From sequence record MN340231.1: DNA of 44,616 nt, one strand, 5' to 3'. This document shows, piece by piece, positions 9,001 through 12,000 of the stretch. Made by a program: the position numbers. The DNA comes from Escherichia phage phiv205-1. Within the stretch, counting starts at the first letter, position 1, and every line of letters starts with the position of its first letter.

Positions 9001-12000
9001 CGTAGCTACGGTGAATTTTGGGCATAAAAAAACCCAGCCGAAGCTGGGTCGTTGCGTTGGTTATCTGTCAGTAGTTATGTACTGAAGGAGGTAATTCTTT
9101 ATTCTTAAGTCTCATCCATGCGGAAAGATTCGTTGGTCCGTCTGGCTCATTGATATCAACATCTCGTGTGTGGTTTATTAAAACGTCTCTCGCCATTCCG
9201 ATAACATACGAGAATTCATGACCGTAGTCGTAGCATCTGCCGGAATAGTTCGATTGAATTTGTTTTAGCGCCGGATACAGTTCGCGGAATAATGCCTGTG
9301 AGCGGTTGGCATAATCCCATAACCATACAAGGCTGTTTGCTTCTTTTGCAGAAAGCTCGTTGGTTTTCTTCTCTTGTTTGCCAATGAACTCACCTTCAAG
9401 CACTACCCTGTGGATGTACTCTACTGCTTGTGGTATCTGAGATGCATCAAGCTCTTCAATACTTTCCACATTGAAACGCTGATGAATCATTGCATAAGCT
9501 TCTGGGTACATTAGATGCTTTTTGCTGACTAGCATATTTACAGCATCACGAAGCGGAGTCCTGTCATCAACAGATGTTTTCTTCCGTGCATTTACTGCCT
9601 CTCCCTTTGTCCAGTAGTCATGCAGCACAGTAAAGCATTCTTCCTGGTACTGAATCAGTTTATCGCGGATGTCAGCACGAACTTTCTCAGGGTTGATGCT
9701 GAACAGCCATCCATTTAACTTCTTCAAAGGAAGGCAGAGTAGCTTACGAAGCTTACCATCAGCGGCAACCATGTTCATATGAACACAGTTGAATTTGCTA
9801 ATCTGCTTCATGAGTTTTGTTTGCTGCGTTGACCAGCTCATTCCGAGGTTTTCAACGATTGGCTTCATCGCAACATATGCAACTCCGGCAGCCATGGCGG
9901 TGATAATTTGCTGACCGTTGAATGGCACGTAAGAGGTGTTCACTGCTTCTAAAATTGCTATACTATTCATGTTGGTTTTTCTCCACGGATTTACCGACAA
10001 CCGAAGCCCTGACTGTTCCAGCAGTTGGGGCTTCACTGTTTTGATTTCTTTGCCGCATCAAGCATCACTTCTGAAAACGTGCGCTTGCCACTGAATACTC
10101 TTTCTCTTCTCAATTTTTCGTTCGTGCCAAATGATTCGCCATGAACAAAATTTGGTCTTAAAATGGTAATCGCAATCTCTTTGACTACTGCATCCAAGCG
10201 AATCACACCGTTACCCCCTCTCTCTTCAGGCTGTCTATCAGGCGCTTGATAACCTCTGAGTTAAACGACCTGCACTCTTCCTTTGCCCTGCTACCGATAG
10301 CATCCTTTAACGACTGCGGCATCCTTACCAAAATCTTACTTATTTCTTTCTCCATGTTACCCTCCACGCAAACAACTCTTTTCGAATACAAAAGATAGCA
10401 AAGTGAGTATATCTAGTCAAAATTTTTTTGCATACACTTTGATATCAAATTGAATACCAAAGGTGTGATATGGCAAAGGGTGTGTCAATTTCTCCAACTA
10501 CGGTAAGAATCCCTGAATCTTTGCGCGAGGCTCTTGCTGTTAGAGCATCAAAAAATGGTCGCTCTGTTAACTCCGAGATCGTCATGATTTTGCAAGCCGC
10601 GATTGATGAAGATAGGTCGCCAAAGTCAGTTGAGTCATTTGCTCAGCAAGAAGCTGACAAATTCAAAGAGGCGCTGCTGGAGACGCTGAAAACCATGTAT
10701 GGTAAGGATGATAAATAATGCTGCACACAATTCATTTCTTATGCCCCGTTAACACCGCCACTGTTGGGCAACTTCAGAACCACTGTCTCACCGCATTATC
10801 TCAAGGCGCAACTGAATTAAATATCCATATATCAAGTCAGGGAGGGGAAACTGCCGCTGGCTTTACTGCGTATAACTTTCTTAAGTCACTCCCTGTTACC
10901 GTTAGAACTCACAACATAAGCAATGTTGAATCCATAGCTAATATCGTTTTCCTGGCTGGCTCAGAACGTTTCGCAAACCCATTATCAAGATTCCTGTTAC
11001 ATCCTCTATTATGGGGCTTTGCCACCCCAGCCGCCGACCATGCCAGATTGAGAGAGTACGGGAAATGCCTCGATAACGATCTTGATCGCTTCGTTGAGAC
11101 GTTCAATATCGACATCGGAACCCATATTAGGTGGGCATCCCTGATAGCAGACTCGACCATTTTGGATGCTAACAAGGCTCTTGAGCATGGCATAATTAAT
11201 TCCATAAAAACTGCAAGGCTGGTATCCAATCAGGCAAACTGGTGGGTTGTTTGATGGGTAAATCATGATTACTCCTTATAAAAAACCCACCTGACGGTGG
11301 GTTTTATTAGTGCTTGTATAGGTTGAACTCTCTATCAAGCCATATAACAAAAAATGTCGATCCAAGACGATAACCAACCATGGCTTTCAAATCATCAAAT
11401 CTAAAAGCCAAGAAATGATCTACGTCTTCCGTTATATGACTGGGGATACCTGCTTTAATTGCACCCCTTGCAATCTTCTCAAATCCAAGCTTATGCCTAC
11501 CTTGCTGCTTAATCTCTGCCCATGTTAGTTGACTTAATCTGTATAATTTATCAGCTAAGCCAGCTTTCTCATCTTTTTGGCATTTCGTTATGCAGTGAGA
11601 GCTTTGGATGTAACAGAATGAAAATTTCGGTTTCTTTTGATCTGAATTCCCCCCTGACTGCGGCCCTAACTTTAACTTACCTGTAGATTCAGCAGGGGGG
11701 ATAATCCTTTTAGATTTTCTTGCCATCTCGTTAGTTAATCCGAGTTGCAAAGTACTCTGCCATCTCCTTAGAGCTAATTTCAGAACCACCAACACCCTCA
11801 ATATAGTTTGATCTCCATGGTGACTCTTCGTGTGTCATGTTCCTCAGTTTCCAGGCAGAAAATTGCCCAAAAACATCCCAGACTTCTTCTAATAGCTCTA
11901 ACTGTTCTTCGCTGAATTTTCAGCATCAAAAGACTCTGGAGAAGGGATAGCGCCATTACCATATTGTTTATAACGGCGATAAAGCTCAGGGACAACAGGG

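Follow-up and report, generated by a model that had tools for sequence, protein, structure and literature searches.

A short ClpP-family gene overlapping mnt in the immI region of Escherichia phage phiv205-1, with relatives of the PpClpP1 type

Why would a temperate phage keep a gene for a ClpP-like peptidase directly behind the gene for a lysogeny repressor? The proteases ClpXP and ClpAP control phage and host switches that involve RpoS, the λ O protein, the Mu repressor, antitoxins and SOS proteins. We addressed this question for Escherichia phage phiv205-1 (MN340231.1), analyzing a stretch of 44,616 nucleotides (nt) (hereafter, the window), in which the start codon of a gene for a ClpP-like protein of 178 amino acids (aa) overlaps the stop codon of an mnt homolog. 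Judged by its sequence and its structural model, this gene belongs to a subfamily of short ClpP proteins exemplified by PpClpP1 of Pseudomonas plecoglossicida. We consider it probable, with considerable room for doubt, that the product is a catalytically competent ClpP of this short type, carried as mnt-coupled prophage cargo, which would either retune host proteolysis or act as a weak peptidase; this proposal combines sequence evidence, modeling and analogy. The parts of the locus that matter most are the following.

10470..10718, plus strand: mnt homolog, 82 aa, first gene of the operon (PF03869, expect value (E) 1e-10)
10704..10720, plus strand: coupling junction, with the Shine-Dalgarno (SD) sequence AAGGA and the overlap of the mnt stop with the start of the ClpP-like gene (read from the sequence)
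10718..11254, plus strand: short ClpP paralog gene, 178 aa (ATG start, reading of the open reading frame (ORF))
11282..11305, both strands: bidirectional hairpin resembling an intrinsic terminator (folding on both strands)

The initial annotation had described a 178-aa ORF that starts in a TAATG overlap with the mnt stop codon and encodes a protein of the ClpP family and fold. The ORF and the overlap can be read directly, the three protein motifs quoted in that annotation are all present in the ORF, and the family assignment stands, with a Pfam match to PF00574 (Clp_protease) above the cut-off (46.7 bits, gathering score 20.2, E 4.3e-12, residues 24-165) and an AlphaFold2 model that superposes on ClpP. 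The model, for which the alignment contained 33 relatives, has a mean predicted local distance difference test (pLDDT) score of 94.2 and a predicted template modeling (pTM) score of 0.90, and includes a long handle helix (residues 108-132). In Foldseek comparisons, the template modeling (TM) scores against the ClpP proteins of E. coli, S. aureus, Francisella and Listeria were 0.83-0.85, whereas PpClpP1 (PDB 9UXT) was matched with a TM score of 0.94, a root-mean-square deviation of 1.5 Å and 38% identity; the next-best structural match after 9UXT was Listeria ClpP1/2 (4ryf). The best match in a phmmer search of PDB sequences was likewise 9uxt_A (E 4.6e-35, residues 3-175). In RefSeq/PGAP, the product already carries the name 'ATP-dependent Clp protease proteolytic subunit' (WP_021557681.1); the family call, although correct, is therefore not new. 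All NCBIfam ClpP equivalog and subfamily models, however, scored below their cut-offs (best 40.9 bits, cut-offs 228-361), and by these sequence criteria the protein is not a canonical ClpP.

We aligned the profile of the family to E. coli ClpP with hhalign, using a reference sequence that was checked to be identical to that in PDB 3MT6. In this alignment, Ser72 (codon 10931-10933, in NVESIAN) corresponds to the E. coli ClpP nucleophile Ser97 and His95 (codon 11000-11002) to His122, whereas the position of the catalytic Asp171 is taken by Ser146, and Asp145 falls opposite Arg170. Alignment by phmmer to M. tuberculosis ClpP1 and 9UXT gave the same register. Ser72, His95 and an SSxGG loop are invariant in the 33 relatives; the column equivalent to Asp171 holds Ser, Ala or Thr across this set, and Asp145 is found only in the closest relatives. 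Thus, of the triad that had been proposed from the sequence, the histidine is right, but the serine of HISSQGG is not the nucleophile, because the alignments place Ser72 at Ser97 and make HISSQGG the counterpart of the SPGG loop of ClpP, and the aspartate of IADST (Asp145) is one residue off and unconserved. A canonical triad that uses Asp145 was accordingly rejected on the family and hhalign alignments as well as those to M. tuberculosis ClpP1 and 9UXT.

The N-terminus and the docking pocket depart from E. coli ClpP, too. The first residue of the protein corresponds to about residue 25 of mature ClpP, or precursor residue 39-40 (an offset of 39, extrapolated to residue 1), and because about 25 mature residues are missing, the axial loops, which gate the pore and contact ClpX/ClpA, are absent. 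The residues that we take to form the pocket for the IGF/IGL loop and for acyldepsipeptides (ADEP) in E. coli ClpP, Y60, Y62, F82, I90 and M92, align to N35, H37, S57, H65 and I67. The window protein and E. coli ClpP (peptidase family S14) thus share the fold with the handle helix, the positions of the catalytic Ser and His, and the SPGG-type loop (here SSQGG), but they are only 21% identical and differ in that the window protein has no propeptide or axial loops, carries Ser in place of Asp171 and has N, H, S and H at the pocket positions Y60, Y62, F82 and I90.

These peculiarities have a characterized parallel in PpClpP1 (PDB 9UXT; PLoS Pathog 2026), a 183-aa protein that lacks more than 15 N-terminal residues and has the 'triad' Ser73-His96-Pro151 (PMC12900304). 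PpClpP1 assembles into a homotetradecamer whose axial pore measures 42.7 Å, its peptidase activity is about 13-fold below that of the canonical paralog, and activity is abolished by S73A or H96A, whereas about 60% is kept when Pro151 is changed (PMC12900304). On its own it does not bind ClpX, but together with canonical ClpP it forms a heterotetradecamer of higher activity, whether ClpX is present or not (PMC12900304). The window protein resembles PpClpP1 in its length of about 180 aa, the lack of axial loops, the retention of Ser and His, a non-acidic third position and an altered pocket. Indeed, as far as the alignments tell, every sequence feature behind the properties of PpClpP1 is shared by the window protein, except that Ser replaces Pro. 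ClpP paralogs that depend on a partner are also known from other bacteria, namely, Listeria ClpP1 (Ser-His-Asn), P. aeruginosa ClpP2 and Mycobacterium ClpP1/P2, which form mixed 14-mers with the main ClpP; similarly to the window protein, they are second ClpP isoforms with a non-canonical active site or N-terminus. These are chromosomal core genes, however, and we know of no such partner-dependent paralog that is prophage cargo or a member of a phage immunity operon.

The missing elements raise the question of whether the gene encodes an inactive, decaying pseudo-protease without a function. In favor of decay, the protein has lost the N-terminal loops, the pocket for the unfoldase and the Asp of the canonical triad, and the prophage itself is damaged, the tailspike gene being interrupted by an IS66 element and the Panacea gene being frameshifted. 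Selection on the gene argues for the opposite: the dN/dS ratio is 0.077 when the gene is compared with its Pectobacterium counterpart (79% aa identity; synonymous sites are close to saturation), which points to a gene that is under strong purifying selection, and the conservation of Ser72, His95 and the SSxGG loop throughout the family agrees with this. The identical protein is encoded in thousands of assemblies (2403 blocks of the assembly collection contain it exactly) and also in phage isolates deposited in GenBank, where five phage records encode it at ≥99% identity. Moreover, PpClpP1 has undergone the same losses and is active (PMC12900304). We therefore regard a functionless remnant as very unlikely.

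A different derivation is suggested by phage-specific profiles. The protein matches phrog_94 'head maturation protease' with 76.8 bits and E 5e-21 (PHROGs have no curated cut-off), scores 49.7 bits against NF045542 (Clp_rel_HeadMat), and yields tblastn matches at 26-30% identity to proteases or protease/scaffold proteins of Stx phages and to head proteases of streptococcal phages, so that it might be a ClpP-like prohead or head-maturation protease, or what is left of one. With these enzymes it shares an S14-type fold without N-terminal loops and the similarity of hidden Markov models. The NF045542 score is, however, below the curated cut-off of 120 bits, the nearest relatives are cellular short ClpPs, and the protein has no scaffold or capsid-targeting extension. 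The position of the gene is equally unsuited to this role: the stretch from mnt to the gene 16 side of immI, where it is located, is outside the head module, and the gene is oriented opposite to the late genes, in the predicted transcription unit of a lysogeny repressor. P22-type capsids, furthermore, mature without a protease. Taken together, a role in head maturation has hardly any credibility, and the case flags a likely annotation error, because pipelines based on PHROGs would label this gene a head maturation protease.

How the gene is wired into the operon is apparent from its start. The stop codon of mnt (TAA, 10716-10718) and the ATG of the ClpP-like gene (10718-10720) share one base, and an AAGGA SD sequence is located within the 3' end of mnt at 10704-10708, 9 nt upstream of the ATG. 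The junction, AAGGAT(G/A)A(T/A)AAATAATG, is kept in all 12 P22-like loci examined, Pectobacterium included, whereas the mnt sequence upstream of it is divergent among the same loci. The upstream gene is a true homolog of mnt; its 82-aa product is a ribbon-helix-helix (RHH) protein with the Arc domain (PF03869) that is 37.5% identical to the annotated Mnt of P22 over 82% of its length, and other mnt alleles at the same position match PF11423 (Repressor_Mnt), the C-terminal domain of Mnt. The overlap, the SD sequence and the conservation of the junction support the proposal, made in the initial annotation, of translational coupling to a Mnt-type repressor gene. The bidirectional terminator that had been placed at the end of the gene was recovered as well: 28 bases past the stop codon, there is a GC-rich hairpin of 10 bp flanked by runs of A and U, and it can form on either strand, with folding energies of -18.5 and -19.7 kcal/mol (z -3.1 and -4.5). 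A simple terminator scan missed this hairpin, and folding was used instead. The hairpin closes the mnt operon and also the convergent cargo genes on the minus strand, and its position is equivalent to that of the annotated mnt terminator of P22.

The annotated gene order of P22, in the orientation of the window, is 9, ant, sar, arc, operators and promoters, mnt, orf59a, mnt terminator, PsieA, sieA and gene 16. Therefore, the ClpP-like gene occupies the orf59a slot inside the mnt operon and not, as had been suggested, the place of sieA, whereas the remark that the canonical map of P22 lacks a gene of this kind is confirmed by the P22 annotation, which has orf59a there. That the annotated mnt promoter and mnt terminator of P22 bracket the same slot supports coupling to mnt. 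Both occupants follow mnt and precede the terminator of the operon and the sieA slot, but orf59a encodes a 59-aa Gly/Lys-rich protein with no apparent sequence relationship to the ClpP-like protein and starts about 100 nt away from mnt instead of overlapping it. The sieA slot of the window is separate, at about 12.2-12.75 kb, beyond a pair of cargo genes. Replacement of sieA by the ClpP-like gene was rejected on the P22 annotation and on the existence of a prophage (L024) in which the ClpP-like gene coexists with a true SieA (93% identity to P22 SieA). The Pfam profile search gave no match of the ClpP-like protein to SieA (PF26849), and the model predicts a soluble ClpP fold.

The sieA slot is itself variable. 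In the window it holds a hydrophobic, possibly membrane-associated 62-aa ORF (12548-12736, plus strand; phrog_21338), and among related prophages we found at least seven unrelated small proteins there, true SieA included. The possibility that the 62-aa ORF is a truncated SieA was discarded: the BLASTP comparison gave E 0.31, the ORF is unrelated to the other occupants of the slot, and it matches phrog_21338 over the full length.

An exhaustive profile search with a threshold of E<=1e-30 returned 224 clusters at the 50% identity level, mostly of 180-200 aa. The enterobacterial branch of this family is prophage cargo. Among complete E. coli genomes, 128 of 5426 (2.4%) contain the gene, always on the chromosome, including those of avian pathogenic E. 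coli (APEC) O1 and the type strain ATCC 11775, and other carriers are prophages of Klebsiella, Pectobacterium, Pantoea and Proteus. Wherever the carrier is a P22-like prophage (E. coli and Pectobacterium), the first base of the ClpP-like gene is also the last base of the Mnt-type gene, even though these carriers differ in their tailspikes, in the cargo downstream and in their mnt alleles (78-85 aa). Relatives were found in four prophage settings besides the P22-like one, oriented opposite to the neighboring phage genes in each: in lambdoid prophages, a relative with about 57% identity lies between the lysis cassette and the terminase genes, opposite to the late genes and with no RHH gene; in a Chromobacterium myovirus-like prophage, a relative is located between tail-fiber and lysis genes on the opposite strand; and in a Proteus lambdoid prophage, between N and erf/ssb, again on the opposite strand. 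Phage PhiR12_1 (PV340549.1), a λ-like siphovirus, carries an ant-arc/mnt-clpP cassette (3525-5537) between tail genes L and K; more than one phage morphotype thus harbors the immI module together with the ClpP passenger. The window and PhiR12_1 are 98% identical at the DNA level over window positions 10637-11301, a segment that begins about 80 nt before the end of mnt and continues through the ClpP-like gene and the hairpin.

The tight coupling to mnt, the conserved junction and the joint occurrence of ant-arc/mnt-clpP between tail genes of a λ-like siphovirus speak for a dedicated immI regulator, made stoichiometrically with Mnt, that degrades Ant (or Arc/Mnt) and thereby backs up the transcriptional repression of the antirepressor. 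Yet relatives with 53-60% identity reside in prophages in which neither mnt nor ant is seen close to the gene, which makes a role limited to the turnover of Ant or Mnt unlikely, and the 98% identity with PhiR12_1 extends from the 3' end of mnt through clpP to the terminator but does not include ant or arc. In addition, P22 itself manages with an unrelated gene, orf59a, in the same place, and a ClpP without a gate and without an unfoldase would be a poor degrader of a specific folded protein. A dedicated immI regulator thus appears quite improbable.

The distribution outside the Enterobacteria includes chromosomal genes. In Pseudomonas, PpClpP1-type genes have a conserved chromosomal neighborhood, with genes for KGG-type stress proteins and DUF6555, and on these grounds we rejected the notion that PpClpP1 itself is prophage cargo; in loci L043-L047, KGG-repeat genes and DUF6555 consistently flank the PpClpP1-type gene. 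This neighborhood, not discussed in the 2026 paper, hints at a role of PpClpP1 in stress response. The loci of Massilia and Telluria also seem to be chromosomal, on a rough reading of ORFs only.

Returning to the short ClpP as mnt-coupled cargo, we envisage the following mechanism. The mnt promoter would drive expression of the ClpP-like protein along with Mnt in the lysogen, and such production is probable because the gene is the distal, translationally coupled member of the mnt operon; the gene would then be a moron expressed in the lysogen. By analogy with PpClpP1, the product would assemble into a similar barrel with no axial gate and no docking pocket for ClpX/ClpA. In what we consider the more likely of two modes, it would enter mixed 14-mers with the host ClpP and retune ClpXP/ClpAP proteolysis; in the less likely mode, it would be a weak, unfoldase-independent peptidase acting on peptides and unfolded chains. 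The benefit could lie in the fitness of the host through its stress responses and proteostasis, or in interference with incoming phages. Several points weigh against this proposal. The third active-site position is Pro151 in PpClpP1 and Ser146 here, and the Foldseek alignment of the two proteins has only 38% identity. The Pseudomonas genes are chromosomal, located near the KGG and DUF6555 genes, whereas the window gene is prophage-borne and mnt-coupled, and the biology of PpClpP1 may not transfer because of this chromosomal location next to stress genes. Descent from phage prohead proteases is possible, given that the PHROG 94 score of 76.8 bits exceeds that of the Pfam ClpP family. Finally, the promoter scan of the region upstream of mnt detected no plus-strand promoter above the threshold.

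Interference with incoming phages could also be the role of the gene. A lysogen-expressed effector of superinfection exclusion or anti-phage defense would be a gate-less protease that, alone or with the host ClpP, degrades injected proteins, unfolded proteins or the early proteins of incoming phages, or triggers abortive proteolysis. The gene resides in the immI/sieA accessory region, where the cargo is variable in a manner typical of defense hotspots (a Panacea pair, HicA with a DUF1902 gene, SieA), its lysogenic polarity is probable, and moron sites of unrelated prophages recur as its locations. Against this, the ClpP-like protein matched none of the families of PADLOC-DB 2.0 at E<=1, we found no literature on such a system, the neighboring cargo is variable and often absent so that there is no conserved partner, and the chromosomal relatives in Pseudomonas are found among stress genes and not in defense islands. 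The argument for exclusion is one of guilt by association, with location as its whole basis, and we consider this explanation unlikely, even if it ranks ahead of a regulator confined to immI.

If the proposal of the retuned host ClpP is true, a gate-less subunit in the host ClpP pool would be a compact means by which a prophage alters host physiology or blocks rivals. The gene is a common and strongly conserved prophage accessory, and its relatives place PpClpP1, a recently described drug target in Pseudomonas, in a wider family with a mobile, phage-borne branch. The ClpP annotation and the PpClpP1 kind of paralog were already known; we found no published description of the phage-borne branch of the PpClpP1 family, its hard-wiring to mnt or its recurrence as a moron across prophage types, and as far as the literature was searched, no prophage-borne or defense-related ClpP paralog has been described. 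A bolder scenario, which we put forward tentatively and as doubtful, is that unrelated temperate phages have captured a gate-less ClpP paralog that is expressed from the prophage and, in P22-like phages, wired to Mnt, and that would hybridize with the host ClpP and reprogram proteolysis as a means of exclusion or defense, or as a stress-altering form of lysogenic conversion, with an antisense-encoded 85-aa protein as a lesser addition in some lineages.

The ClpP-like gene is set in a complete P22-type immI region, with arc, sar, ant and the tailspike gene to the left of mnt:

9068..9970, minus strand: ant, antirepressor (PF10547 and PF10548 P22_AR, phrog_245, RefSeq coding sequence)
9971..10037, plus strand: sar antisense RNA, between arc and ant (Rfam RF00262, 83.9 bits, gathering score 43, E 2e-17)
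10203..10355, minus strand: arc, 50-aa RHH repressor (PF03869, E 5e-12; RefSeq 'Arc family DNA-binding protein')
10356..10469, no strand assigned: divergent control region of arc and mnt (promoter scan, sequence, and analogy with the annotated Pant, Pmnt and operators of P22)

Within the control region, the promoter scan identified a leftward promoter resembling Pant, with TTGACT at 10420-10415 and TATCTT at 10397-10392. A perfect 12-bp palindrome, TTTGATATCAAA, at 10438-10449, just upstream of the mnt SD sequence, is a candidate operator. A RefSeq-annotated 57-aa ORF (10033-10206, minus strand; phrog_17642) overlaps sar by 5 nt (10033-10037) on the opposite strand. To the left, an IS66-family element (tnpA/tnpB/tnpC; about 6350-8680 of the window) is inserted in the tailspike gene (3572-8967), which is thereby divided into an N-terminal head-binding part of 71 aa and a C-terminal pseudogene; a prophage with the tailspike split in this way probably does not make infectious particles. 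The window corresponds to a part of the chromosome of E. coli APEC IMT5155, in which the prophage is integrated at a tRNA-Arg gene adjoining yfdC, beside the intS integrase gene, and within the 2.1 kb compared, the window differs from this record by one 1-nt indel.

Beyond the hairpin, a convergent two-gene cargo on the minus strand (11307-12173) consists of a gene for a Panacea-domain (SocA-like antitoxin) protein, followed by one for a 139-aa phrog_8366 protein. The latter has a weak match to NsnC in PADLOC (E 6e-6) and one to MAG6450 in NCBIfam (E 0.02), and the pair is probably a PanA-type toxin-antitoxin system. Other prophages have at this position HicA with a DUF1902 gene, or no such pair. 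The Panacea-domain gene (11731-12173) is frameshifted by a 1-nt deletion at about 11917, in a run of five Ts, in comparison with the APEC IMT5155 record, which is otherwise identical, and is either a real pseudogene or reflects a homopolymer sequencing difference. SocA is a ClpXP adaptor, and a functional pairing of the Panacea gene with the ClpP-like gene was considered and rejected: there is no evidence of such a linkage, because the two genes are convergent, the terminator separates them and the pair is absent from most of the prophages that carry the ClpP-like gene.

The last observation concerns the opposite strand of the ClpP-like gene, where an 85-aa ORF (11009..11266, minus strand), preceded by AAGGAG-5 nt-ATG, covers the 3' half in antisense, with its codons in register with those of the sense gene. 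The ORF matches phrog_7758, which shows only that gene callers have annotated it. Among the sense Leu and Ser codons, those that would close the antisense frame (TTA, CTA and TCA) account for 11 of 22 in codons 1-98 and 0 of 11 in codons 99-178, with the cut point between codons 98 and 99 chosen after the data were seen. The same avoidance was found in Pectobacterium, two Pantoea loci and Chromobacterium, and a minus-strand SD sequence with ATG was present in both loci inspected, one from Pectobacterium (L032) and one from Pantoea (L002); in other clades, the antisense frame is closed. For closer pairs, synonymous divergence is lower in the 3' half (0.41 vs 0.86). Judging from these codon patterns, an antisense 85-aa protein may be encoded in some lineages.

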